Positions 10,566 to 35,154 of a stretch of 35,154 bases of DNA are shown here, one piece after another. The position numbers and the translations under genes were made by a program. Numbering within the stretch: the stretch's first letter is position 1; each line of letters begins with the position of its first letter. Source of the DNA: a virus (lineage: Duplodnaviria > Heunggongvirae > Uroviricota > Caudoviricetes); IMG/VR virus record IMGVR_UViG_2913152634_000005; one strand, 5' to 3'. The notes beneath the pieces were generated by a model that worked only from the letters and a program-made list of their open reading frames with translations, searched no databases and was not told the origin of the DNA.

Positions 10566-11329
10566 TACCTAATTTTTAACCTCAACTGATTAAATTTCGG
10601 TCAAACATCCGTTAGTGAAATACAAGTTGCTATGTAAATACACACCTGCAACTTGTATTACCAACCAAGTTTAGCTCCCGATATTACTCATTTCCATTAT
10701 TTTTCCTTGGCTAGCGCTTCGTCGAACATTTTTACGTGTTATCTTCAAGGTAGATGCTCGCAGAAATGATAGTACCACCGATTCGGCGTTGACCATAAGC
10801 CAGCAGAACAAGATCCCCTTGGCCGGTTGTATTCGTTACACCACCAAATGCATAGAATGCCTTGTTATCAGTATCTTGCTTACTCGGCTACCCACAAGAT
10901 TGTGGGGATAGCATTTGAGCAACGTAGCCTATCGTCACAGAAGCCCCTACTACAAACATCATATTACTGGACGCTATACGCGCTCCTGACATTCAGATAG
11001 ACACAGCAACGCAAATCATTTGCAGCAGACCAGAGCTTTTACTTTCCACAATAACTGGCACAAATACGAATTTCCCGACCCTCAGTAGAGAGCACAAGCG
11101 CATCTTTTCCAATATTCTGTTTCCTATGAAAAATACAGAATGTCAGCTCGCGAAATTTACTAGTATTCAGATACTTTTCTAATCGAACCTCTCAGTTTAA
11201 TCGTCATCATTACCTTATAGCTCTGCATTTCGAGTTCCTACAGTAGAGTAAGTGTTCAGTAACCCAAGTTCAGGAGAAAGGAAACGATCATGCCATTTTC
11301 AGTCCCAAATAATGCTTTCCATTTCCTTT

Positions 11330-11480
11330 CTTTTCAGGTGGTGTTTTAAATAAAAACATAAAGTTACGGCGAAGAAGAACGGAAACGCCTTAAACCGGAA
11401 AATTTCCATAAATAGAGAAAAACTGCGCGCCTTCCGCCCCGTAACGCTCCGGATCACCGGAAAGGACCCGCTCAAAAAAA
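11330..11480. other. cos-like DNA packaging site of the integrated element (cosB/cosQ conserved, cosN divergent)
   Basis: About 150 bp with roughly 85-90% identity to the prophage cos region at 27122-27270; cosN position reads GGGCGGAAGGCG versus GGGCGGCGACCT. Confidence 0.7.
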
Positions 11481-11513
11481 GCGGCCACTGACGTGATTGT
11501 TTATGTTCCATGA

Positions 11514-11545
11514 GCGACAAAACCGCCCGGAGGCGGTTTCACATA
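11514..11545 (-). terminator. rho-independent terminator after the gpI-like gene
   Basis: minus-strand CCGCC-tccg-GGCGG stem followed by TTTTG. Confidence 0.5.
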
Positions 11546-11557
11546 AAACATTCTGCA

Positions 11558-12205
11558 TCAGCGACCAATCACCACGATTTCACCACCATCACCTTCATCA
11601 GCTGTGCTGATCTCCTGAGATACCACACGTGACCCCACGCGCATTTCACCGTACAGAACAGGCAGGACATTGCCCTGGGCAACCATGTTATCCAGTGACG
11701 AGAAATACGTGTTCTGCTTACCGTTATCCGTTGTCTGTGTACGGGGAGTTCTGGCTTTCGGTGCCAGCATCTGAGCCACACCGCCAAGGATCATACTGGC
11801 CCCCGCACTATACATTCCTGTAATTGCTGCCGCTCCTAGCCAACCAGCGGGGTTCCACCACGCCACCGCAATCAGCGCCGCCCCCAGCACGGTCTGAAAC
11901 ACACCGCCACTTTTAGCGCCAGCAAGACGCGGTACGATGTGGATCACAGCACCATTCGCCAGCGGCTCATTAAGACGGGCTGATAATTCATTTTCGCCTG
12001 CATCCCGCCCGGCAATCCGTACCTGATACCAACCGTCGCTCAGTTTCTGACGAAACGACGGTAGCTGTGTGGACAGAGCTCGGATGGCTTCAGCCCCCGT
12101 TTTTACACGAAGGTCGATGCGGCGGCCGAATCGTTGCAAATCCCCGTAAAGGCAGATTCGTGCCATGCCCGATGACGCCAGAGGGAGTGTGTGCGTAGTT
12201 GCCAT
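11558..12205 (-). CDS. I: lambda gpI-like tail assembly protein
   Basis: 215 aa; MATTHTLPLASSGMARICLYGDLQRFGRRIDLRVKTG...NTYFSSLDNMVAQGNVLPVLYGEMRVGSRVVSQEISTADEGDGG closely matches lambda gpI as remembered. Confidence 0.8.
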   Translation of the reverse strand: MATTHTLPLASSGMARICLYGDLQRFGRRIDLRVKTGAEAIRALSTQLPSFRQKLSDGWYQVRIAGRDAGENELSARLNEPLANGAVIHIVPRLAGAKSGGVFQTVLGAALIAVAWWNPAGWLGAAAITGMYSAGASMILGGVAQMLAPKARTPRTQTTDNGKQNTYFSSLDNMVAQGNVLPVLYGEMRVGSRVVSQEISTADEGDGGEIVVIGR

Positions 12206-12245
12206 TTGTCGGTATACCTCTCTCGTTTGCTCTGTTGTTCAGAAA

Positions 12246-12629
12246 TTAGCAGATCAACTTATAGCGTCCCTTCCGAGCATTGCGGCGTACACGTTCAATC
12301 TTGAGGCATAGCGCCGCATCTGGCTTTTTTGGGACTGGTACACGGCAATATTCAGAAGCGCGAGGAATATTATTTATCCAGTCAATCACTTCGCTTAAAT
12401 ACCAGGCCTTACGCCCTTCCGTAACCTGCACACGCTCCGGGAACTCTCCACGGGCCTCAAGGTTTAGCAGTGTACGACGACTCAGGGTTGTAAGTTCCAT
12501 CACCTGATTCATATCAACAAGACGCTCGCTTAAACGCATTTTGTCAGCGATAGCTTTTAATTCCTCTACAGCTGGATTTGGGTACATAATTTCGGCAATT
12601 GGCTTAAGGTCATTGTAATGATTCTGCAT
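12246..12629 (-). CDS. AlpA/MerR-like winged-HTH DNA-binding protein (function uncertain; candidate packaging-specificity factor)
   Basis: 127 aa; HTH segment MELTTLSRRTLLNLEARGEFPERVQVTEGRKAWYLSEVIDWI; strong RBS aaggggga. Confidence 0.55.
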   Translation of the reverse strand: MQNHYNDLKPIAEIMYPNPAVEELKAIADKMRLSERLVDMNQVMELTTLSRRTLLNLEARGEFPERVQVTEGRKAWYLSEVIDWINNIPRASEYCRVPVPKKPDAALCLKIERVRRNARKGRYKLIC

Positions 12630-12640
12630 TGTATCCCCCT

Positions 12641-12982
12641 TTACACACGAGCCAGCGGCTGAACAGAAATACCTGAGCCAACAAACGCTGCAACCTTTAC
12701 TGACAGTTCTTTTACAGACTCAGGCCAGTTCAGAGCATCAACATTTAAGACACCTGTCTTATAGACCTGAGCCTGTGTTTTTTTCGCGGTGTCGATTTGT
12801 ACAGCGGATACATAAACCGCTTTACCTACGCTCGTACCATCCCATACCACCAGTGCACCTGTTGCATCTTCCTGCATCAGTGGCGTAAATGCAGGAATTA
12901 CCCCTTTATTAGCTGAAAATATCCCCAGCGTAGTAACCAGTGCTTCAGTGCCAGCCATGAGTTCAGTGTAATGAGTAGCCAT
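12641..12982 (-). CDS. head decoration protein, distant lambda D homologue
   Basis: 113 aa; TPLM...LVVWDGTS.GKAV...Y.KTG...WPE...AF.GSGIS pattern parallels lambda gpD; translationally coupled to the capsid gene. Confidence 0.6.
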   Translation of the reverse strand: MATHYTELMAGTEALVTTLGIFSANKGVIPAFTPLMQEDATGALVVWDGTSVGKAVYVSAVQIDTAKKTQAQVYKTGVLNVDALNWPESVKELSVKVAAFVGSGISVQPLARV

Positions 12983-12991
12983 TGCTCCCCC

Positions 12992-14038
12992 TTAGCCAAT
13001 GCGAACGGTAACAAAACGATTGATGCGGGCCGGTATTGGCTGTGGTGCTGAATGTGTCTGCACATATTCAATAGCCGGATCACCAGGCACAATATAGTTT
13101 TTCGGTGCAAGTTCGGCTTTAGTCAGCCCCATTCGGATTAGCTCCGGATCCTGAATACCGCCATAGGCGACAATCCCCTGAAGAGCCGTATTGCCAAGCA
13201 CCATCAAATCAGGATCAAGGAAATGTTTTTCAGTTCCGTCCTCGTCGGTATAACGCCCGCTGTAAACAACAATCGCAACATCGCCCATATACCCTTTAAA
13301 ACTCACCGAATCACCAAGGTCTTTAAGGGCCGTTTCCAGTTCGGAATTAGAACCACGACGGGTATCCAGAGCCTCTTTTATCGCTCTGAATGAACGGTAT
13401 TTCTTCCATACATTACCGCCCATAATGATGATATTAGTGACGCCCTCACTAAATTCTGCGTAGTTCTCAATATCATCATTTGGATCAAAAGTTTCTTTAT
13501 CCTTACCTGACCACTCAGCACCGCCAGACTGAGTGATGATATTTTGTGGTTTAATATTCCAGTCCAGCTCATAACGTTCAATACCATCGCCCTCAATGAT
13601 ATTTTTCCCCGTTGTGATTGCCTGAACGGCAAGCCATTCAATACGTGCACGAATAGCTTTAGCTTGATTTACAATCGCCTGTTTAACTTTAATATTACGC
13701 GCCCCAAAAGCATTGTATTGCTCAGGTGATACACCAGCAGGGCGCACAGCTAACTTATTTGGATCAATGCTGCTTTTCGGCTTCATATAGCCTGGACGAA
13801 TTGTTTTTGATTCGTACCCTTCGTCACGTGAAACTTTACTACCCACCATAGGAGAACAAAACGCTGCAATTGGGATATTTGGATCGTCGATTGTATCAAG
13901 AATAATATCGCGCGATTCAAACATTACCGAGCGAGTAAAAAACAAACGGGTAAACAACGCATTTAGTTGTTTTTGTACATCTACAGCATTAACCACCTGT
14001 ACAAGCTGGGTAGGCGAATATAAATCAACCATACGCAT
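12992..14038 (-). CDS. major capsid protein, lambda E-like, encoded by the integrated element
   Basis: Conserved blocks ITQSGGAEWSGKDKETFDPNDDIE, DTRRGSNSELETALKDLG, YMGDVAIVVYSG, LGNT shared with lambda gpE at roughly half identity; start at ATG 14036-38 or 14030-32. Confidence 0.82.
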   Translation of the reverse strand: MRMVDLYSPTQLVQVVNAVDVQKQLNALFTRLFFTRSVMFESRDIILDTIDDPNIPIAAFCSPMVGSKVSRDEGYESKTIRPGYMKPKSSIDPNKLAVRPAGVSPEQYNAFGARNIKVKQAIVNQAKAIRARIEWLAVQAITTGKNIIEGDGIERYELDWNIKPQNIITQSGGAEWSGKDKETFDPNDDIENYAEFSEGVTNIIIMGGNVWKKYRSFRAIKEALDTRRGSNSELETALKDLGDSVSFKGYMGDVAIVVYSGRYTDEDGTEKHFLDPDLMVLGNTALQGIVAYGGIQDPELIRMGLTKAELAPKNYIVPGDPAIEYVQTHSAPQPIPARINRFVTVRIG

Positions 14039-14249
14039 CCTCTTTGCATTCATTAAAAATAATTGTGGATATATGCTATCACCGATATTTGTCATGCGAA
14101 TACATGCAACCGAGTGCAATGTTGTATAAAGTTTTGGGATGACAACTTCAGCGCGGATAATTAGTGTTAATATCTTCACTCCCTTTGGTCGGGATTTATG
14201 TAGCATGCCGGAAAATTTATTTTTTTCCGGCCTTTTTTATTGGCAATAT

Positions 14250-14699
14250 TTAAAACGGAATATCATCTCCCCATTGCTCATTATCTCCCACTGGTGGATG
14301 GCTTCCTTGCTGATCTGCCTGTTGTTTTGCTCTGTTCAGTGCGTCAGTAGCCTGCCCCTGTTGGCCTTTTTTGCCGCCCGGTCGCACCGTTCGCGCACTG
14401 ATTACGCTGTCTGCGATAACCTGCCAGCCCTGCCGCGTTTCACCGTTCTGTCCAGTCCACTGACTCACCTGCATGTTACCCGCCACGCTCAGGAGTTCGC
14501 CTTTGTGATGCTTTGCCAGCGCGTCGGCTTGTCTGCCAAACGCCAGAACAGATAACCACATCGTCGCCTGACCGTCATCCGATTGGCTGCAGGGCAGTGA
14601 TACCGCCATACGCGCCAGCGTCATGGGGGTGCCCTTGCTGGTCTGTTTTGTCTGCGGGGCGTCCACCAGCCGCCCGTAAGCTGCTATTTGCGCCGTCAT
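14250..14699 (-). CDS. ssb: single-stranded DNA-binding protein
   Basis: 149 aa; OB-fold SSB pattern, Gly/Gln-rich linker and C-terminal acidic tail DDIPF. Confidence 0.85.
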   Translation of the reverse strand: MTAQIAAYGRLVDAPQTKQTSKGTPMTLARMAVSLPCSQSDDGQATMWLSVLAFGRQADALAKHHKGELLSVAGNMQVSQWTGQNGETRQGWQVIADSVISARTVRPGGKKGQQGQATDALNRAKQQADQQGSHPPVGDNEQWGDDIPF

Positions 14700-14953
14700 G
14701 CTGCCTGCTCTCCGGACTTAATATTGATGGTTGTCACTTCCTCCGCTTCGGCAATCTCCCGTTCGGTCAGCGTGGCAAAGTTTGCAGCCGCCGTTGTCAT
14801 GAATGCGCTTATCAGTTCGGGATGTGCTTTCGCGTATCCTTCCCCGGCGTTGCGGTCTATTGCCTTAATCGCCACCCTTAGCCAGTGTTCAGCCATATCA
14901 AGGGCGCGGTAATGTGGCTTTATATGTTTGTTCAGTTTTCCTGATGTGTGCAT
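14696..14953 (-). CDS. hypothetical protein, translationally coupled to ssb
   Basis: 85-aa ORF; stop overlaps the ssb start. Confidence 0.4.
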   Translation of the reverse strand: MHTSGKLNKHIKPHYRALDMAEHWLRVAIKAIDRNAGEGYAKAHPELISAFMTTAAANFATLTEREIAEAEEVTTINIKSGEQAA

Positions 14954-14989
14954 TTTTATTTTTACCCCCTCGTTTAAAAAGTTTTTTGT

Positions 14990-15240
14990 GCACCACCACC
15001 TTGTCTACCTTGTCTACCTGATTAGTTATCAGGCCAGTAATGGCGCGGGTTTCAGGGAGGTAGACAGCCCCAAATAGCTGTCTACCTCATCTCTACCCGT
15101 CTCCTTACCTGTCTACAAAAATGGGTAGATAAGGTAGATAACAGGTAGACAGTGAAAAATAGTTATCTACCTGCATTAATACATTGAAATAAAAGTATTT
15201 TCTTTCAGTCAGGTAGACAAGGTAGATAACCATTGCCATT
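14990..15240. repeat. iteron array, putative replication origin of the element
   Basis: At least ten copies of GGTAGACA/GGTAGATA and their complements TGTCTACC in both orientations, directly downstream of the helicase gene. Confidence 0.7.
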
Positions 15241-15242
15241 TT

Positions 15243-16334
15243 TTATAAAAACGCATCGCAATCATCAGTAGTCGTTGCGTTGGTCTGCGTGACTCCCTTA
15301 ACTTTTCGCGTAATATATTCATATCCGTAAACTTTCGCCGCTGACCTCATAGCCTTTCCGAACTCATTCACGCTCAAACATTTCCCCTTTCCTGTGTATG
15401 CCATGAAGGCCATATAGACACGGTAAAGGCTGTTTCTGGTCGTGTACTTCACGGAGTCACCACCACCGCCCATCATTAGCCCACGAGCTTCCTCCAGAAA
15501 CTCAAGCGCCGCGCAAAGCTCAACAACTGGATCCGTTTGCTGCTTTATTGCCAGAGCTTCATCACCGTCACGCTGTTCCAGTAGTAAAGCCCTTGCCTTT
15601 TCAGGGTCAGCAAAGTTAGCCAGCAAGCGGCGGATAATTACGGGGATTTCTGCCGCTATCTTTTCCGGTAATTCCTTGTCTTTTTCGTCCTCCCTTACAA
15701 TGTTGTCGAACCGGAAAATCACCCGACGGCGTGACACACCTCCGGCCCGTTCGGTAAAGATCATCGGGTCGTTATTGGTTGCCAGTACCACCGCCCTTAT
15801 TATCGTCGTGAATCGCTTCTCATATTTCGGATTGATTTCAACGGGATCGCCTCCCGTGATTTTCTTGATGCCCGTGCCTTCCCCCGTATATTTCGGCTGA
15901 TCGGCAAGGACGATAAGACGACTCCCGACAACCTGCGCGCGCCCTCCTGCATCATCGAGTGATGTCATCTCTGCGCTTACGGTGTTCTGTTTGCCTGCAA
16001 GCAGGGTGGCAATATGGGTAAATGTACTCTTACCGCTTCCCCCGTCTCCGGTGGCCTCAATGAACATCTGCCAGTCGTAGCGGTTCGCCATAATCATGTA
16101 TAACGCGGCACATATACGCATCATCTTGCGCGGGTCTTTTCCTGCAGCATGTTCAAGCCATTTATGGAAATTTGGCGCATTATCGCGGATGTTTTCCCCT
16201 GCTACTGGTGGCGTGTACTCAATACCATTGTGCGTGGTGCTCCAGTGCTCCGGCGAGTGCGGAGAAAATTCCCCCGTTTTCAGATTAAGCACACCATTAG
16301 TGAACGGTAGCAAATCACCGGACGGCTCCCCCAT
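15243..16334 (-). CDS. replicative helicase domain protein (P4-alpha/D5-type, SF3)
   Basis: 363 aa; Walker A GDGGSGKST, Walker B LIVLADQP; FTNGVLNLKTGEF motif typical of the D5_N/primase linker. Confidence 0.8.
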   Translation of the reverse strand: MGEPSGDLLPFTNGVLNLKTGEFSPHSPEHWSTTHNGIEYTPPVAGENIRDNAPNFHKWLEHAAGKDPRKMMRICAALYMIMANRYDWQMFIEATGDGGSGKSTFTHIATLLAGKQNTVSAEMTSLDDAGGRAQVVGSRLIVLADQPKYTGEGTGIKKITGGDPVEINPKYEKRFTTIIRAVVLATNNDPMIFTERAGGVSRRRVIFRFDNIVREDEKDKELPEKIAAEIPVIIRRLLANFADPEKARALLLEQRDGDEALAIKQQTDPVVELCAALEFLEEARGLMMGGGGDSVKYTTRNSLYRVYMAFMAYTGKGKCLSVNEFGKAMRSAAKVYGYEYITRKVKGVTQTNATTTDDCDAFL

Positions 16335-16993
16335 GGGGCGGCAATAACTTTTAACGCTTCCACGGCGTTATTGATTACGCGTTTGCTGAACGTGGCCCTG
16401 TGCTCTGAATAGATCGCCACCATTTCGCGGCTCAGCTCCATTGTGCTGACCGGACACCATACCCCGCCGCGCCATACGTGGACGATTTCACTTTCTGCAT
16501 GAACACAAACACCATCAAAGCGATCGGCAAGTAGTTGTGCCCGCTCACTGTCTGCCATCTGTGAAAGTTGCGCCTTTTGCTTCGTCGGAAGATTAAGCAC
16601 CAGGCTTTCCCCACGCTCGCATTCCTCTTTGAGTCGCGGCAACTGGTCGGATAAATCCACAGGGCTGGTGTCAGTAATCCCCGCGTATTCGTGTACGGTC
16701 TTCACTCCAGCCACAGCCAGTAACGTAACAATCTGCGTCATGCTGTGCTCTGTGATATGTCCTGCGCGGTAAACACGCACACACTGACGATCTTCATCAA
16801 TGATCCGGTAATCGGTGATGTTTTTCAGTTGCTCATCAGCCAGCACGACAGGCGGCACATCGTCGGCGGCAATATGTTTACCCGCCCATTCCTGCCACTC
16901 TTTCGCATGGCTCCACGCATCACTACCTGCAAAGATGATTACCTCTGTCAGTCTGTCGCGTGGCTGTTTTTTTAAGTTCGGTGCCAGTTTCAT
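16280..16993 (-). CDS. primase-like replication protein, N-terminal module (overlaps the helicase ORF by 55 nt in another frame)
   Basis: 237-aa ORF upstream of the helicase; the overlap suggests one primase-helicase gene split by a frameshift. Confidence 0.5.
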   Translation of the reverse strand: MKLAPNLKKQPRDRLTEVIIFAGSDAWSHAKEWQEWAGKHIAADDVPPVVLADEQLKNITDYRIIDEDRQCVRVYRAGHITEHSMTQIVTLLAVAGVKTVHEYAGITDTSPVDLSDQLPRLKEECERGESLVLNLPTKQKAQLSQMADSERAQLLADRFDGVCVHAESEIVHVWRGGVWCPVSTMELSREMVAIYSEHRATFSKRVINNAVEALKVIAAPWGSRPVICYRSLMVCLI

Positions 16994-17289
16994 TTTTTGC
17001 CCCTGAATGCGTTAATCATGCTTTTCATTTTCTGGATGTTTCCCCGCGCTTTTTCCCTGCTGGTGGGCTTACTGCGGGGTGCGGCATATACCAGGGAAAA
17101 ATCACGCCGGAACTGATAAACAGGCATCACGCAGTCATAGCTATACCCCTCACGGCGGTAAGTGATGCGCCGTTCTGCCACGCCTTTAATCGTTACCGTG
17201 CCGCCGTATTTATCGCGGTAAATATCGCCGTTCATAAATTCAGGCCGAGCGGGGCCGCTGGCAATAAAGCCAGAATTTTTCATTTCCAT
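16990..17289 (-). CDS. hypothetical protein
   Basis: 99-aa ORF, stop overlaps the primase start (ATGA). Confidence 0.4.
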   Translation of the reverse strand: MEMKNSGFIASGPARPEFMNGDIYRDKYGGTVTIKGVAERRITYRREGYSYDCVMPVYQFRRDFSLVYAAPRSKPTSREKARGNIQKMKSMINAFRGKK

Positions 17290-17306
17290 ATTATTTATTC
17301 TTCGAC

Positions 17307-17528
17307 TTAACTCGACTTATTTGATAGCAGGGCACTATTTATTGCGTCATTGAGTTTTTCTGCTGCTTCATCAATAAGTGACAACAGGCCATAAGCAATA
17401 TTTGCATCTTCATTGTCATTTATGCAATCAAGCCACATATTTAATATTGCTTTTGCTGAATTATTTAAAGTTAATGAACTCTCTGCACATGCTAACAATT
17501 TAAAAAAGACTTCTCGTTCTGTATTCAT
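17307..17528 (-). CDS. hypothetical protein
   Basis: 73-aa ORF in a tightly packed leftward operon. Confidence 0.35.
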   Translation of the reverse strand: MNTEREVFFKLLACAESSLTLNNSAKAILNMWLDCINDNEDANIAYGLLSLIDEAAEKLNDAINSALLSNKSS

Positions 17529-17720
17529 TTAATCCCCCACCAGCTTACTTTCTTCCTCAATCAGGAAACTAGCGACACTTCCCGAAAGGCGCGCCAGTAG
17601 GCTCGCCAGCGCGGATATATCAGCATCTGTAATTTTGTTCGGGTATACCTCAAGAAGGCGGCAAATAATCTCTGTTTGGTGCGCACGTTCAGCGGCTTCG
17701 TGTAATGTGATTTCCTGCAT
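17529..17720 (-). CDS. hypothetical protein
   Basis: 63-aa ORF abutting its neighbours. Confidence 0.35.
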   Translation of the reverse strand: MQEITLHEAAERAHQTEIICRLLEVYPNKITDADISALASLLARLSGSVASFLIEEESKLVGD

Positions 17721-17905
17721 TAATGCACCTCTTTTAATTCATACACTGCTGAAATAATGACTTGTGATAAGCCATATTCTGATGATTCGCTTCTCACCGC
17801 AGCAATAGCCGTCTGAACATTAACAGCCTTCACGTTCTGAGCGATACCAATTGTGTGGCCTCGTGGGTTAACAGCTCGGGCAAATACACGGAAGGTTTTA
17901 AGCAC
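17720..17905 (-). CDS. hypothetical protein
   Basis: 61-aa ORF abutting its neighbours. Confidence 0.35.
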   Translation of the reverse strand: MLKTFRVFARAVNPRGHTIGIAQNVKAVNVQTAIAAVRSESSEYGLSQVIISAVYELKEVH

Positions 17906-18161
17906 GGCGCACCTCCTGACGAATACGGGCAGCGAATACCATCACGCAGCCAGTTGGGGATTGCTGGCGGGCTTCCTGTTCGCTGATGGCCTCGATGGTA
18001 ATCACGCGCGGTTGTGCCGTACTCAAGGCGATAAAACGCCAGATGTATTTATTCAGGTTGTGCGAGTTCCGCCCTTGCGGGTGTGTGGTATGATTTCTCA
18101 TAGCTACCTCGATACTGTTGCTATCGTTGGTGGTTAAACGCCCTGTATGTGTTGCGAGCAC
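17898..18161 (-). CDS. hypothetical protein, first gene of the leftward operon
   Basis: 87-aa ORF starting next to the divergent promoter region. Confidence 0.35.
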   Translation of the reverse strand: MLATHTGRLTTNDSNSIEVAMRNHTTHPQGRNSHNLNKYIWRFIALSTAQPRVITIEAISEQEARQQSPTGCVMVFAARIRQEVRRA

Positions 18162-18196
18162 TGCAGGGCGTTGTTCCAGAGCAATAAAACATGATA

Positions 18197-18240
18197 AGGT
18201 GTGTACCTATCAAGAAGCATACTAAGCAATAGGTACATAC
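18197..18240. promoter_or_regulatory. inverted-repeat operator in a divergent promoter region
   Basis: TGTACCTAT (18202-18210) and ATAGGTACA (18229-18237) form a 9-bp inverted repeat immediately upstream of the RHH gene. Confidence 0.45.
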
Positions 18241-18435
18241 ATGTCAACTATCATTCAGCGCGATAAACAGCCGAAAGGTGCTGGTAAGGCACCGGCATTT
18301 CAGATCCGTATCAACCCGGAACTAAAAGAACAAATGGTTAGTGCGGCTGCAAAAGAAGGAATGAGTTTGGCTAATTGGCTTAAAGAACTAGCAAGAGCAG
18401 AACTACGCAAACAAGGTATTGAACCTAGAGGTTAA
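18241..18435 (+). CDS. ribbon-helix-helix DNA-binding protein (repressor or antitoxin-like)
   Basis: 64 aa; beta-strand FQIRINPEL followed by two helices (KEQMVSAAAKEG / MSLANWLKELARAEL), typical of CopG/Arc RHH proteins. Confidence 0.55.
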   Translation: MSTIIQRDKQPKGAGKAPAFQIRINPELKEQMVSAAAKEGMSLANWLKELARAELRKQGIEPRG

Positions 18436-18459
18436 GACTTTTAAAAGGATCTGTGAGAG

Positions 18460-19185
18460 ATGCAAAATCTAAAACGAATAAGTGAATATAATTTAACAGA
18501 CAATCCTATCCCACATTATTTCCCTCATGATAGTAGATTCCTGTCTCTACTTGGGAAATTTTCGTTCCGACTTGAAGATCTAATAGTATTTCACTCATTT
18601 GTTTATCATACATATAACATAAATCTTAAGGAGATACAAAAAATTGCAGATAACACTCCCCAATATAATCCAGACTTATTAGACGATGAAGAGCATGAAA
18701 TGGCCTTGATTTCTCAAGCCAGACATAGAGAGAGGGTTGGTTATTATGATGATCTTAATAGAAAAGCCTCATTTTTTGCCAATGACAGTGTCGTAATTAA
18801 TCTTTGGGCTATTATTGAACAGTTTAGTACCATGGCATACTCTTTGCTAGAAGCAATTATTAAAGAAATACCTGAAAATCAAGTTAAAGTTCCATATACA
18901 TGGGATAAATTAAAAAAGAAATACTTAAGTTATGGTATTGACCTCTCCCAACTTGATTCTTACGATGTCATTAACGAAACTAGGGTTTTAAACAACAAAA
19001 TCAAACACCTTTATATTGTCGATGAAAACCTTGCCTCTTTTCCTTTTTTCAAGGACAAAGAGAACAAGTCATTATTAGGAATGGAATATAGGCTTCAAGA
19101 TTATGTTATTGGAACTCATAAGTTCATCGGGCATCTTTTAGAGGATTGCTCCATAAAATTAGGAAATAAGGCAAACATGATTTAA
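18460..19185 (+). CDS. hypothetical protein, AT-rich cargo gene (candidate toxin or defence effector)
   Basis: 241-aa ORF 24 nt after the RHH gene; no family recognised; visibly AT-rich. Confidence 0.5.
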   Translation: MQNLKRISEYNLTDNPIPHYFPHDSRFLSLLGKFSFRLEDLIVFHSFVYHTYNINLKEIQKIADNTPQYNPDLLDDEEHEMALISQARHRERVGYYDDLNRKASFFANDSVVINLWAIIEQFSTMAYSLLEAIIKEIPENQVKVPYTWDKLKKKYLSYGIDLSQLDSYDVINETRVLNNKIKHLYIVDENLASFPFFKDKENKSLLGMEYRLQDYVIGTHKFIGHLLEDCSIKLGNKANMI

Positions 19186-19189
19186 ATTA

Positions 19190-19222
19190 ATTAGGTAGGT
19201 AATAAACCTACCTAATTGAAAT
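19190..19222. terminator. bidirectional terminator hairpin between convergent genes
   Basis: Perfect palindrome TTAGGTAGGT-aataaa-CCTACCTAA. Confidence 0.55.
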
Positions 19223-19225
19223 GAT

Positions 19226-19459
19226 TTACTTATTTAAGTACCATTCCCCACGAATCCACGCCTGCACCTCCGAAAGGCGATATGCTACGGCAGTGGCACC
19301 TATTTTAATTCGCTTTGGAAACTTTCCTTCTTTCTCTAACTTCCATCGAGTGCTATTAGCAAGAGTAGTTAACTCACGGCATTCTTTCTCACGGATCATT
19401 CGGTCAATGTTAGGAATGTATTCCAGACCCTTTTTATCAACAATTGCCATTTTTTTCAT
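19226..19459 (-). CDS. alpA: AlpA-family excisionase/transcriptional regulator
   Basis: 77 aa; HTH CRELTTLANSTRWKLEKEGKFPKRIKIG; immediately downstream of int. Confidence 0.7.
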   Translation of the reverse strand: MKKMAIVDKKGLEYIPNIDRMIREKECRELTTLANSTRWKLEKEGKFPKRIKIGATAVAYRLSEVQAWIRGEWYLNK

Positions 19460-19460
19460 G

Positions 19461-20573
19461 TTAACCAGCCTTTTGTTTGAGGATTGTCACTTTTGAATCA
19501 GCAGCTGCGATGCTATTGAGATATGTAGTCCAGAGTTCCAGAGCATCCAGTTTTTTAGCCATAAACTTACTCCGGTTGTAAACACCTGCCACGCCAGGTA
19601 GCGCATGGCCTAACAGTTGTTCTACTACATAAAATTCAACACCGAGATCACTTAGATGAGTAGATAGCGTTCTTCTAAGGTCGTGTAGTGACCATTGTTT
19701 TTCATGGCCCAAACGTTTACCGATTTTCCCCCCAATCTTGCTTACGCTTTCTCTAATTCGCAGACTTCCCAGCACATAACCAGTATGTTTTGTCTCTTCG
19801 TGAACATCCGTTACCCACTGTCGTAGAATTTCAGGTACTGGTCTGACGATTTCAACACCAGTTTTTGAGTGATCTTTTGGTACAGTCCAAACCCAACTTT
19901 CGAGATCCCATTCGCTCCATTCTGATAATCGGGCTTCACTCATTCGACATCCAAATACTGTACAAAGCACAAACATTTTTCGCGTGTATTCAGACATTAG
20001 TTTTAAATCAGGCTCGACAAAAATTGCCTTCCAGAGCTGGCCGAGTTCGGCTTCATCCAGAACCCGATCCCGCTTACCTGCAATCTGCCCCACATCACTC
20101 ATGCGCAAATCCTTTAAAGCATCACACGTCGCGTACTGGCGTACCCGACAAAAACGAAGAGCTAATTTAGTGTCAGAAAAAACATACGCCGCCATAACTG
20201 GTGCATTACTTTTAATTCGGTCAAAACAGTCCAGCCATTCATATAGGTGAGTGTCATTTACGGGCAAATGACCGATATAGGGAAAGATATGCTTTCGAAA
20301 TCTGCCAAGCGTTACAGCATGAGTTTTACGACGCACCTTACAGTAATTTTCATACCAGTAATTTAGTGCATCCTCCACTGTGACCGGCTTTAAGCGTTCT
20401 TCAGCCTGAATCTTAATCTGGATACGCGGATCACGTTTGTCAGCCAACCAAGCACGGCACTCGTCGCGCTTTTCCCTTGCCTGTTTGAGTGACATATCAG
20501 GATATTTACCCAACGTTAGCCAGACCGGAGCAGCCCGGCCACCTGCTAACCTGTAGAAGAAAACAAAGCTCAC
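19461..20573 (-). CDS. int: tyrosine integrase (P4-type), catalytic portion; N-terminal arm-binding segment lies in another frame at 20573-20695
   Basis: 370 aa with R...HDLRRT...LLGH...Y tyrosine-recombinase motifs; ORF 20570-20827 encodes the expected N-terminus MAGENKLSDKALKGYLGKPREKQITIADGKGLSIRVSTKGL and stops 1 nt out of frame. Confidence 0.8.
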   Translation of the reverse strand: MSFVFFYRLAGGRAAPVWLTLGKYPDMSLKQAREKRDECRAWLADKRDPRIQIKIQAEERLKPVTVEDALNYWYENYCKVRRKTHAVTLGRFRKHIFPYIGHLPVNDTHLYEWLDCFDRIKSNAPVMAAYVFSDTKLALRFCRVRQYATCDALKDLRMSDVGQIAGKRDRVLDEAELGQLWKAIFVEPDLKLMSEYTRKMFVLCTVFGCRMSEARLSEWSEWDLESWVWTVPKDHSKTGVEIVRPVPEILRQWVTDVHEETKHTGYVLGSLRIRESVSKIGGKIGKRLGHEKQWSLHDLRRTLSTHLSDLGVEFYVVEQLLGHALPGVAGVYNRSKFMAKKLDALELWTTYLNSIAAADSKVTILKQKAG

Positions 20574-20827
20574 AGCCCCTTGGTACTCACACGAATAGAA
20601 AGCCCCTTTCCATCAGCAATGGTGATCTGCTTTTCTCTGGGTTTCCCCAGATATCCTTTAAGTGCTTTGTCGCTCAGTTTGTTCTCGCCAGCCATTTTTA
20701 GCCCCAAAAAGCAATACAAGCTGCAATACAGAGATGATTGCAACACACAGATAACGAGGAAAATCCAGTGAAAGCGCCAGATAAACTTATTCTTTATTAT
20801 CAAAAGATTAAGTGTAAAAACCAGCAA

Positions 20828-21103
20828 CTACACGAAAGCCTCAGAAAGCCATGCTAAGTGCTTCGGCTTGACATATCCCGGCGTAAATTCAGAGGTGGAG
20901 CCGCCACGGGAGCGGATAACCTCACCGGAAACAATCGGCGAAACGTACAGCGCCATGTTTACCAGCCCCGGAATTTGTGAGAGATAGACTTTCTCCGTGG
21001 TGAAGGGATAGCTCTCACGGAAAAAGAGACGCAGAAACAGCGGATCAAACTTAAATTTCTGCTCATTTGCCGCCAGCAGCTGGGCGGTTGTGTACATCGA
21101 CAT
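20828..21103 (-). pseudogene. E: major capsid protein E, 5' fragment (codons 1-84 plus 9 element-derived codons)
   Basis: MSMYTTAQLLAANEQKFKFDPLFLRLFFRESYPFTTEKVYLSQIPGLVNMALYVSPIVSGEVIRSRGGSTSEFTPGYVKPKH matches lambda gpE 1-84, then LAWLSEAFV-stop. Confidence 0.88.
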
Positions 21104-27047: not shown

Positions 27048-27119
27048 TGTTCATTCCACGGACAAAAACAGAGAAAGGAAACGACAGAGGCCAAAAAGCT
27101 CGCTTTCAGCACCTGTCGT

Positions 27120-27245
27120 TTCCTTTCTTTTCAGGGGGTATTTTAAATAAAAACACTAAGTTACGACGAAGAAGAACGGAAACGCCTTAAACCGGAAAAT
27201 TTTCATAAATAGCGAAAACCCGCGAGGTCGCCGCCCCGTAGCCTG
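27120..27245. other. prophage cos site (cosB, cosN at 27216-27227, cosQ)
   Basis: Minus strand reads ...CAGGCTACG GGGCGGCGACCT CGCGGGTTTTCGCTATTTATGAAAATTTTCCGGTTTAAGGCG..., the lambda cos as remembered. Confidence 0.85.
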
Positions 27246-27536
27246 CCGGATCGCCGGAAAGGACCCGCAAGCGTTCTGGTTTATTCGCAATGAATTCAAT
27301 GTCTGACAGACCAGCGTCGTGCGACCACGGTCGCACGCTCCTGAATACATGCCCTGTTTCTTCCACCCTCGCACAAGACTGGCGAGCATGAGGGACAAAC
27401 CCGCGAATCATTAGCGCGGTAAAAACCCGGTGTGCATCGTTTTGATTATTCCCGCACACTCGCGCAGAAGGAATTCCCCGTCGGGCTACGGTCATGGTTA
27501 ATGCGGGAATACGGCGACGATACAGCGCATAATGTG

Positions 27537-31934: not shown

Positions 31935-32596
31935 GCGCCTTCTCCCTGTACCTGAATCAATGTGAGGTTTCCGCAGAACACTGCGCCAGTATCGATATAC
32001 ATCTGGTTGGCAAATTTGAGTGGTTTCACTGCTGGCGTATGACCAAAGATGAACGTGTCCGCGCCTTTGATTTCTTTCACGATCCCGTCTTGTGAGTTGC
32101 TGATTCGTTCGCGGTTCCAGATTACCTGCTGATGATCAACTGGCTTTCCAAACTCGTATTTATCACAAGGATAATCGGCGTGGCAGATGACATATTTTTT
32201 TCCTTTACTCACCAGTTCGATGATTAACGGAAGTTCATCTGCTTTATGGGCAAGAGCTTTAGCCAGAATTTCTTTGTCGTAATCGAGATTAAAGAACCAG
32301 CCACCGCCATTAAGCAGCCAGTGATTGACGTTTCCACGCTCTGATAAGCCATCAATCATCATTTGCTCATGGTTTCCACGTACAGCTCTGAACCAGGGGA
32401 ATGTGATTAATTCCAGGCATTCAACGTTCTCTGCACCACGATCAACCAAATCGCCCACCGAGATAAGCAGGTCTTTTTTGTTGTCGAATCCAATCGTATC
32501 CAGTTTGTTCATCAGGTTCGTGTAGCATCCGTGCAGATCGCCAACTACCCAAGTATTTCGGTATTTGCTGCCATCAATTCTTTCGTAGATATTCAT
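31931..32596 (-). CDS. Ser/Thr protein phosphatase (lambda orf221 / NinI)
   Basis: 221 aa; GDLHG, GDLVDRG, GNHE metallophosphatase motifs. Confidence 0.9.
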
Positions 32597-33216
32597 GCAG
32601 CCTCACTTCTGCTGTTTCGCAGTTTTTTAAGTTTCTGTTGATACTCCGCCTTGATGGTCCTGCACTCTTCGATAGTCCAGCGATGGCGGTTATGGTTTGA
32701 TTCGATTTCGTCTACTGCTTCCTGCCCGATGCGGCTAATCAGTTCGACGCGATACGGAACGAGATTTCCGCTTTTGTGCTGGTTGCACACCACACATTGC
32801 TTGTGAATATTGCGTTCATCAAATCGGAGTTGAGGTGCCGCAGCAGTTGTCCGGTAATGCCCGGCATCCCACTGAGCAGACGTGAGCGTTCCGCACGAGA
32901 TACATGGTAAGTCGCGGTCTCTTTCTCTGATGAAGGCGTTTACGGCTTGTTGGGCTTGTTTAATCCAGTAACTGCGGGGCTTTAAGGCGAGTTTTTGAAT
33001 CTTAAGTTTATCTTTCTGTTTCTGCTCCTCTCGTCGTCGTTTCTTCTCTGCTGCCTTTTCTGCCTTTTCCGCTTTTTCGCGTTCTTTGCTTCGTCGTTCG
33101 AGTGCTATCTTGGTTCCACACTCTGGAGAGCACCACCACTGATTAGCGAATGCAGGGTGAAACCATTCCCGACATTCATCGTTTTTACATCGTCTTCGCG
33201 CTGGTTTAGCCATCAT
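32593..33216 (-). CDS. ninG: NinG (Rap-like) protein
   Basis: 207 aa, matches lambda NinG; Cys-rich N-terminus. Confidence 0.85.
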
Positions 33217-34248: not shown

Positions 34249-34539
34249 TCATCTTTTAACTCCATATACCGCCAATACCCGTTTCATCGCGGCACTCTGG
34301 CGACACTCCTTAAAAATTAGGTTCGTGCTCATCTTTCCTTCCCGTTCTTCCTTGGTAGCAAACCGGTAATACACCGTTCGCCAGACCTTACCTTCGATAA
34401 CCAGAAGACCTGCCCGTGCCATTTTAGCCGCGGCCTGATTTATGCTGGTTACTGTTGCGCCTGTTAGCGCGGCAACGTCCGGCGCACAGAAGCTATTATG
34501 CGTCCCCAGGTAATGAATAATTGCCTCTTTGCCCGTCAT
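34249..34539 (-). CDS. ren: Ren exclusion protein
   Basis: 96 aa near-identical to lambda Ren. Confidence 0.88.
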   Translation of the reverse strand: MTGKEAIIHYLGTHNSFCAPDVAALTGATVTSINQAAAKMARAGLLVIEGKVWRTVYYRFATKEEREGKMSTNLIFKECRQSAAMKRVLAVYGVKR

Positions 34540-34779
34540 ACACTTGCTCCTTTCAGTCCGAACTTAGCTTTGAGTTCTGCGATCTTCGCCAGAGCCTGTG
34601 CACGATTTAGAGGTCTACCGCCCATGACAGGAAGTTGTTTTACTGGTTCAGGGATCGCCTCACCACGGTTAATTCTCGCAGTCATATGGACAAGCTCATC
34701 TGCGGCCTTACGGCGTAATTCCGCATCAGTAAGCGCATTGGCCCGCATGTTCTGATACAGGTTGGTAACCAGCCAGTAG
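34536..34779 (-). pseudogene. P: replication protein P, 3' fragment truncated by IS911
   Basis: Translation ends ...NRAQALAKIAELKAKFGLKGASV as in lambda P; the reading frame runs into the IS911 terminal repeat at 34780. Confidence 0.8.

Positions 34780-35154
<375 letters not shown>

Follow-up and report, generated by a model that had tools for sequence, protein, structure and literature searches.

The AlpA proteins that have been characterized in phage-inducible chromosomal islands (PICIs) act as transcriptional activators (PMC6092414), and positive autoregulation by AlpA has been documented in EcCICFT073 and EcCIMP1 (PMC6092414, PMC11773190). According to a 2025 study, typical PICIs of Escherichia coli encode only one AlpA (PMC11773190). 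When the helper-embedded PICI family 11capE was described, Phage_AlpA was counted as a marker of the integration zone, and a second AlpA-type gene in the late zone was not discussed (PMC10111431). Here we analyzed a helper-embedded PICI in a 35,154-nucleotide (nt) stretch of DNA, IMG/VR record IMGVR_UViG_2913152634_000005 (the whole stretch is referred to below as the window), and in particular a gene for a winged helix-turn-helix (HTH) protein at the end of the capsid operon of this satellite (the HTH gene, Table 1). The HTH gene is a second, late-module paralogue of the AlpA regulator of the satellite, and we tentatively propose that its product is a dedicated transcription factor of its own capsid cassette.

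The HTH protein resembles the AlpA proteins of EcCICFT073 and EcCIMP1 and other AlpA/Vis/TorI-type proteins in belonging to PF05930, in having a winged HTH and in being encoded by a satellite. These PICI AlpA proteins activate their own promoters. They are about 60-85 amino acids (aa) long and are encoded beside the integrase, as is the norm for AlpA, whereas the HTH protein has 127 aa, with a conserved 34-aa two-helix N-terminal extension and a basic C-terminal helix, and its gene is 6.8 kb away from the integrase, closes the capsid operon beside cos, and is inherited with the capsid module. In addition, the HTH gene coexists with a canonical AlpA gene or an HTH_17 gene. In the island studied here, the small AlpA and the HTH protein are paralogues with 37% identity over the HTH. 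The initial annotation had placed the HTH gene between the capsid module and cos and not beside the integrase, and this was correct: the integrase side is held by the canonical AlpA.

By sequence and by fold, the HTH protein is a member of the AlpA family. It matched Pfam PF05930 (Phage_AlpA) with an E-value of 1.3e-8 (35 bits, cut-off 21) over residues 36-85, and the alignment spanned positions 2-51 of the 51 profile positions. It also matched phrog_2790, labeled 'excisionase and transcriptional regulator', at 3.5e-48. At E <= 0.01, Phage_AlpA alone was reported from Pfam, with no match to Nu1 or to PyocinActivator, and NCBIfam gave no match. The sole significant match by sequence among solved structures was 8c3t, the AlpA-family excisionase of GIsul2 (E 1.6e-10). 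A first AlphaFold2 model built with 24 close homologues had a predicted local distance difference test score (pLDDT) of 49 and was discarded as unusable, while a second model, for which 29 small-AlpA sequences were added to the alignment, had a pLDDT of 76, with more than 90 in the core. The second model has two N-terminal helices, a winged HTH (helices 40-47, 51-60 and 78-86, wing 67-77) and a basic C-terminal helix (105-119), which is the excisionase-type winged HTH fold. Its fold neighbours were excisionases of the AlpA/recombination directionality factor (RDF) type, Xis, BldC and PrtN-type activators. The closest solved structure was again 8c3t, with 40-44% identity in the core, and RdfS and Xis came next; PrtN-named models among the Foldseek viral matches were weak (E about 1e-2). 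The fold had initially been called AlpA/MerR-like winged HTH, which the Pfam, PHROG, 8c3t and AlphaFold2 results bear out. The 127-aa open reading frame (ORF) with a strong ribosome-binding site was confirmed as well: the Shine-Dalgarno (SD) sequence AGGGGGA stands 4-5 nt ahead of the ATG. It starts right behind the stop codon of the decoration gene, and thus the HTH gene and the decoration gene are tightly coupled.

Homologues of the HTH protein form 99 protein clusters, nearly all of exactly 127 aa, from at least 10 enterobacterial genera, including Escherichia, Enterobacter, Klebsiella, Citrobacter, Salmonella, Pluralibacter and Buttiauxella. The dN/dS values were 0.05-0.18 for main-clade pairs with unsaturated synonymous sites and at most 0.34 against the most divergent clade (L007 and L218), and the recognition helix is near-invariant across genera. 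The HTH gene is a real gene under purifying selection.

The genes for the capsid protein (346 aa), the decoration protein (113 aa) and the HTH protein (127 aa) form an invariant triplet with intergenic gaps of 9-12 nt. The capsid and decoration genes lie directly upstream of the HTH gene in 78 of 78 informative viral contigs, and likewise in 12 genome or metagenome loci and four loci from species-representative genomes (16/16). The integrases beside the triplet fall into at least five classes, being 99, 52, 42-45 or 28% identical to that of the window or of unrelated types. The replication modules also vary (D5 primase, AAA_25, DUF927 or Toprim primase), the early regulator is either AlpA or HTH_17, and the islands are located inside the E gene of a prophage or on the chromosome beside mug-rpoD-dnaG. 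Since the surroundings vary while the triplet is constant, the HTH gene is part of the capsid module rather than of the integration module, which argues against a role as excisionase for the island integrase. Its inheritance is independent of the integrase, replication and early-regulator modules, and it has no link to the cosB or Nu1 type. EcCICFT073 (L013) lacks this HTH gene, and its order is capsid, decoration, c1501, cos1 and rppA, with c1501 (L013 32084-32497) encoding an unrelated 137-aa protein without a Pfam match at the position of the HTH gene; comparison of c1501 by BLASTP and hhalign gave no similarity either. As a precedent for the regulator proposed below, a PerC-family activator gene (L013 29960-30208) immediately precedes the capsid operon of EcCICFT073.

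Upstream of the capsid gene, the cassette carries an array of direct repeats that is a putative operator or activator site for the HTH protein. In the window and its relatives, three to four TTRYAC direct repeats with exactly 10-bp spacing stand just upstream of an extended -10 element. Seven of eight divergent lineages keep the form TGnTAnnAT of this element, with its distance to the capsid ATG unchanged. Between lineages, the 150-330 bp in front of the capsid gene have diverged beyond alignment, yet the array and the -10 element persist at fixed positions. In a scan for phased triples, the array was the only such site in the 35-kb window, where 0.03 would be expected by chance, and in each of the 18-20-kb relatives the array at the capsid promoter was again the only site. 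Scores of at least 15 of 18 were obtained for the array at 89 of the 92 HTH-bearing loci, at none of the 80 EcCICFT073-type capsid loci without the HTH gene, and in four of 400 random background windows. Two of the three low scorers that bear the HTH gene are the most divergent HTH clade (L007, L218), which has the wing changes E71P, K74T and Y77L together with TTATAC repeats instead of TTGCAC, a weak covariation. The array is located at roughly -30 to -65, one helical turn further upstream in Enterobacter-type loci, and the -35 is poor. A hairpin between the gene for the single-stranded DNA-binding protein (SSB) and the capsid promoter is a possible insulator or terminator between the replication module and the capsid operon; GC-rich hairpins occur at the same place in the relatives and usually part the array from the replication module.

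The doubled motif of the att arms (TGTATTGCA, 12-bp period) and the repeats of the capsid promoter (ATTATTGCAC in relatives, 10-bp period) share the heptamer TATTGCA, so that both AlpA paralogues may bind half-sites of a related kind. In Enterobacter-type cassettes (L004-L006), the putative -10 lies in a near-perfect palindrome, TTGCAGTGATA-GCA-TTATCACTGCAA, about 40-65 nt upstream of the capsid ATG. This palindrome, which is only partly conserved outside the Enterobacter-type cassettes, might serve a dimeric regulator as a second operator.

As the HTH protein is the only DNA-binding protein that is always inherited with the promoter and the array, we propose it as the transcription factor of the cassette, probably an activator and autoregulator that would bind the array. 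This reading is built on co-inheritance and on analogy with known regulators, and we consider it finely balanced, with slightly more to be said for doubt than for belief. Activation is favoured because of the poor -35 and the location of the array, and the place of the regulator as the last gene of the operon that it would control suggests positive autoregulation. The cassette would consist of an insulating hairpin, an array of three to four repeats, an extended -10 without a good -35, the E-like gene, the D-like gene and the HTH gene, followed by cos. Several HTH monomers might bind head-to-tail on the repeat array, as Xis, BldC and PrtN-type winged-helix proteins do on phased repeats, and the bound protein would recruit or stabilise RNA polymerase at the weak capsid promoter. 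The loop might be triggered by read-through from the antiterminated late transcript of the helper or from the early operon of the island. A repressing sign, with negative autoregulation, is possible. The initial annotation had mentioned regulation of the capsid operon as its second option, and the conserved phased array and promoter that are inherited with the HTH gene lend this circumstantial support; binding to the array is what we infer from them.

Phage P4 delta is a late activator of a satellite that is encoded inside the sid-delta-psu operon and stimulates the promoter of that operon. P4 delta, like P2 Ogr, is comparable to the HTH protein in its proposed way of working only; delta and the HTH protein are both encoded in a capsid-related operon. 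Delta is a zinc-finger protein of the Ogr family and also transactivates helper late promoters, whereas the HTH protein has a winged HTH and no such helper sites were found. PrtN of the Pseudomonas pyocin clusters is likewise comparable in its way of working only, being a small excisionase-like HTH activator with repeats upstream of structural genes. Its P-box has four 10-11-nt repeats 60-100 bp upstream of the SD sequence (PMC4905994), and the array has this layout too, roughly 50-90 nt upstream of the SD sequence of the capsid gene (capsid ATG at 14032). However, the PrtN consensus is ATTGnn(n)GTnn(n) and not TTRYAC, and the HTH protein is not a member of the PrtN family. Moreover, the prtN gene is separate from the targets of PrtN and under PrtR/RecA control, whereas the HTH gene lies within its own putative operon.

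Several points weigh against a dedicated regulator of the capsid operon. The protein and the array are linked by co-inheritance only, and the array is co-inherited with the type of the capsid gene too, so that the association is confounded. The contrast group of EcCICFT073-like loci is a single lineage, which makes the two-by-two association phylogenetically shallow. When viral contigs were scanned for TTGCAC-N4-TTGCAC-N4-TTGCA, 115 of 120 matches were without the cassette, and thus such arrays are a common kind of site in unrelated phage DNA. In the window the array is slightly degenerate (15 of 18), and the capsid promoter is a consensus-level prediction that the general promoter scan did not pick out. 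The motif also fits the CII pattern, and a helper or host factor could be the binder. Finally, an activator gene that comes last in the operon it activates would require a trigger from outside, and the constant closeness of the HTH gene to cosQ is not explained by the regulator model.

It is unlikely, in our judgment, that the HTH protein acts in trans on helper or host genes while the array is bound by CII, a host protein or an early regulator. TTGC-N6-TTGC is the recognition pattern of lambda CII and is found in the array, and a near-invariant recognition helix would be in keeping with a conserved target in the helper or the host. Action on genes of the helper or the host is known for PICI regulators, for example CapR of PLE (cited in PMC10111431) and the repressor of the locus of enterocyte effacement from EcCIMP1. 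Against such a role, neither the 35-kb window, including 14 kb of the late and lysis region of the helper, nor the 18-20 kb of each relative contained a second phased array, and the array stays the same whether the early regulator is AlpA or HTH_17. A CII site is less likely because there are three to four repeats, because the clade with TTATAC repeats is without any TTGC, and because the register to the -10 varies. Enterobacter-type loci have the array one turn further upstream, so that it does not lie on both sides of the -35 in the manner of a CII site.

The HTH protein might instead be an RDF, either a late-expressed excisionase for the satellite integrase, which would set the time at which the island leaves the helper E gene, or a stand-in for the helper excisionase. 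The nearest solved structures (8c3t with its 40-44% core identity, then RdfS and Xis) and the PHROG label point in this direction, as does the TATTGCA that the arm motif TGTATTGCA has in common with the promoter repeats. Excision of 11capE occurs late after induction (PMC10111431), and there is a precedent for a second AlpA of a PICI that acts on helper excision (PMC11773190). This protein, AlpA_1 of EcCIMP1, is similar to the HTH protein in being a second AlpA-family gene product, in having its gene at the island end opposite the integrase, and in being dispensable for the canonical AlpA role. However, AlpA_1 has its gene on the opposite strand, resembles the helper Xis and substitutes for the helper excisionase, whereas the HTH gene is co-oriented and has no association with an integrase type. 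An RDF would be expected to covary with one integrase and its att site, but HTH proteins that are at least 94% identical are found beside integrases that are 99%, 52%, 42-45% and 28% identical to that of the window, and the same HTH gene is present in chromosomal PICIs with unrelated 480-aa integrases and without the arm motif. Every element already has an AlpA or HTH_17 gene adjacent to the integrase. The helper prophages use many attB sites (PMC10111431), which does not fit a near-invariant protein. An excisionase role is therefore very improbable.

The initial annotation favoured a packaging-specificity factor that would redirect the helper terminase to the satellite cos. Such a factor would bind the satellite cos region, the helper Nu1 or both and bias the terminase toward satellite DNA, whether in the manner of Rpp or by binding cos architecturally on the cosQ side. 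The premise in the initial annotation of a cos site without a small terminase subunit was right for this element, in which no Nu1 homologue was found, although 56 of the 91 relatives do have a Nu1-type small terminase gene directly behind cos. The satellite cos matches cos1 and cos2 of EcCICFT073. Its R3 and R1 sites are identical to those of the helper and R2 has one mismatch, all being lambda-type, and thus the helper Nu1 should recognise the satellite cosB directly, with no redirection needed. The cohesive ends do differ: the satellite has the 12-mer GGGCGGAAGGCG, while the helper has the lambda sequence GGGCGGCGACCT (about 27227-27238). Among the 91 related satellites, GGGCGTCAGGCG is the commonest 12-mer (43), followed by the lambda sequence (30). 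The cohesive ends of satellite and helper would not anneal, and the terminase evidently tolerates central changes in the 12-mer.

Across the 91 relatives, the HTH gene is always present, and among E. coli-type elements its product is at least 94% identical, while the cosB type follows the type of the satellite Nu1. The two Nu1 types covary perfectly with the two cosB types in the 56 Nu1-bearing loci (56/56). Of the 91 loci, 47 have the alternative cosB with the alternative Nu1, nine have the lambda types of both, 25 have the lambda cosB and no Nu1, and 10 have another cosB and no Nu1. From these comparisons, packaging specificity in the family is carried by cosB together with Nu1 of the satellite or the helper, and not by the HTH protein.

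Rpp is a PICI protein that redirects a lambda-type small terminase subunit (TerS) to the divergent cosB of the PICI (PMC6739421). Like RppA, RppB and RppC, the HTH protein is a small satellite protein with a winged HTH of the MerR-like superfold, is encoded adjacent to cos, and faces a lambda-type helper terminase. However, the winged HTH is N-terminal in Rpp (residues 1-64) and central in the HTH protein (35-95), and no sequence or profile similarity was found: BLASTP gave no alignment with RppA (CFT073 c1503) at E <= 100, the hhalign probability was 0.2%, and phmmer gave no match with 6HLK or 6HN7 at E <= 10. Nor does the HTH protein belong to the Nu1 family, as the hhalign probability with the helper Nu1 was 1.4%. 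The Rpp islands have a non-lambda cosB with rpp downstream of cos, whereas here cosB is lambda-type and the gene lies upstream. In EcCICFT073, rppA (L013 32660-33094) lies after cos1 (32518-32602). The HTH gene is on the cosQ side of cos, and the Rpp and Nu1 genes are on the cosB side. We also observed that rppA of EcCICFT073 is at the same position as the Nu1 genes of the relatives, which fits Rpp being a Nu1 derivative.

What speaks for a packaging factor is position. The HTH gene is the last gene before cos in every locus, with cosQ usually 25-60 bp past its stop codon and a median distance of 62 nt to cosN, it is co-transcribed toward cos, often without a terminator between, and the cosN 12-mer of the satellite is unlike that of the helper. 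But no conserved motif lies between the stop codon and cosN except cosQ, which is common to all lambda-like phages. Cedecea-type and Pluralibacter loci have a terminator-like hairpin and as much as about 420 bp between the HTH gene and cos, and the window accommodates an insertion of 781 bp with tail genes there. Homology with relatives stops at 12253 and returns at 11471. The gene I of this insertion (11558-12205) matched Pfam Lambda_tail_I, PGAP annotated a 'phage tail protein, missing N-terminus' in the insertion, and the insertion is limited to a few near-identical elements, namely this window, the RefSeq relatives H1 and H2, and L138-L140. The packaging-specificity idea is not supported by these data, and we rate it, too, as having little chance of being right.

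Gene I is recurrent in the late zones of these satellites. A second, degenerate I-like remnant is present behind cos in the window (10738-11100), and islands of Kluyvera and Pluralibacter have an I homologue behind cos (L015 10660-11259; L221 10064-10648).

The array as a replication origin was rejected, as there are GGTAGAYAA iterons of a different site, downstream of the primase gene, and as the array is constant across replication modules. These GGTAGA(C/T)AA / AGGTAGACAG direct and inverted repeats are clustered at 15050-15240, between the primase gene and an 85-aa ORF, and are probably the replication-origin iterons of the satellite.

Table 1. Positions of the HTH gene, the capsid cassette, cos and other features in the 35,154-nt window
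Feature	Positions	Strand	Basis or remark
HTH gene, last gene of the satellite capsid operon	12246-12629	minus	127-codon ORF, ATG to TAA; WP_001356806.1
Shine-Dalgarno sequence AGGGGGA of the HTH gene	12634-12640	minus	Read directly from the sequence
Head decoration gene (113 aa), lambda D-like, second in the cassette	12641-12982	minus	Pfam HDPD 4e-15; phrog_49
Lambda E-like major capsid gene (346 aa), first gene of the cassette	12992-14032	minus	Pfam Phage_cap_E; PGAP coordinates
Putative extended -10 TGATAGCAT (TGnTAnnAT) of the capsid operon	14073-14081	minus	Predicted promoter function
Array of four direct repeats, strict 10-bp period (TTATAC/TTGCAC/TTGCAT/TTCGCAT)	14094-14129	minus	Putative binding site of the HTH protein
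Hairpin between the SSB gene and the capsid promoter	14207-14231		Terminator scan
K 3' fragment and complete tail-assembly gene I, 781-bp insertion between the HTH gene and cos	11472-12252	minus	Homology break
Satellite cos	11275-11469	minus	Read from the sequence; compared with the helper cos at about 27060-27270
cosQ-like GGGTCCTTTCCGGTGATCC	11451-11469	minus	
cosN 12-mer GGGCGGAAGGCG	11428-11439	minus	
Satellite cosB site R3	11376-11387	minus	
Satellite cosB site R2	11320-11331	minus	
Satellite cosB site R1	11275-11286	minus	
Whole helper-embedded PICI (~11.4 kb) in gene E of the lambdoid prophage	9444-20866	minus	Split E gene and arm motifs
Doubled TGTATTGC arm motifs	9532-9554 and 20711-20733	both att arms	Motif matches
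Canonical small AlpA gene (77 aa), adjoining the integrase	19226-19459	minus	Pfam PF05930 at 6.5e-15; tblastn cross-matches
Helper prophage: IS3 copies, truncated genes and type III effector genes	5405-6618, 6657-6914, 34529-35154, 1-2034		

The window is E. coli chromosome, and the closest records are NZ_CP148363.1 and NZ_CP027550.1. The island is a helper-embedded PICI of the published 11capE type, site E:Phage_cap_E:80 (PMC10111431). It splits the E gene of the prophage at KPKH, at codon ~80 of the lambda E homologue, and is co-oriented with it; it has an E-like gene of its own, the doubled TGTATTGC in both arms, and the Int-AlpA, Bro, replication and late zones of that group. The att junction was read by eye from the sequences, as MAFFT alignment of the junctions was uninformative. 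The minus strand of the island encodes, in this order, the integrase, the small AlpA, accessory genes, an Icd-like gene, DUF4222, a D5-type primase, the 85-aa ORF, SSB, the E-like capsid protein, the D-like decoration protein, the HTH protein, and the K fragment with gene I. Then follow cos and the degenerate I-like remnant, and an Abi_C gene on the opposite strand ends the island.

Compared with NZ_CP027550.1, the window has one base fewer in the primase gene (16335) and one fewer in the integrase gene (20576). These losses split the primase (15243-16334 / 16280-16993) and the integrase (19461-20573 / 20570-20827) into two ORFs each; they reflect either true decay of the genes in an abandoned satellite or sequencing errors in homopolymers. 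Degradation is also seen in the helper prophage: copies of IS3 cut the tail tube gene and the replication gene P, and tail genes G to J are missing. Therefore, the satellite is without a functional resident helper. The type III effector genes nleC and nleB2 lie at the left end of the window. Within one IS3 copy, at 6464-6586 (minus strand), an Rfam match to the small RNA isrC was found (135 bits); the Rfam scan gave nothing relevant to the satellite, and a scan for tRNA genes gave nothing. An Abi_C abortive-infection gene is at the right end of the satellite (9804-10565, plus strand), and a HicB-like antitoxin gene (18241-18435, plus strand) with a 241-aa partner lies between the AlpA gene and the Icd-like gene. 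At these two hotspots the relatives carry DUF2971, FRG, putAbiC and others instead.

The island itself has been published. In the literature that we searched, there appears to be no description of the AlpA paralogue of the late module or of its candidate operator. The current view is that one AlpA master activator runs a Gram-negative PICI, and here a second AlpA-type regulator is tied to the capsid cassette. Annotation and satellite-finding tools that take 'AlpA' to mark the integration zone will encounter two such genes in these islands. The analysis also corrects the packaging hypothesis; where the packaging specificity of a satellite of this family departs from that of its helper, the source is the satellite Nu1 homologue that covaries with cosB, and not the HTH protein. 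The capsid cassette moves as one unit between helper-embedded and chromosomal islands, and the proposed regulation offers a testable control point for late genes, made up of a single protein and a single array of 36 bp.

Copies of lambda E and D are widespread among satellites. Deletion of E or D in EcCICFT073 gave no phenotype. It is conceivable, if rather doubtful, that the HTH protein and the TTRYAC array are a self-contained, portable late switch, making the E-D cassette autonomous of the island backbone. In a bolder variant, the late-made HTH protein, encoded beside cosQ, may also mark satellite concatemers for cos cleavage or termination. If the portable switch is real, it could sense the late phase of the helper and would be the first dedicated late regulator for Gram-negative PICIs, and it would give a handle on why satellites keep capsid and decoration genes of their own.

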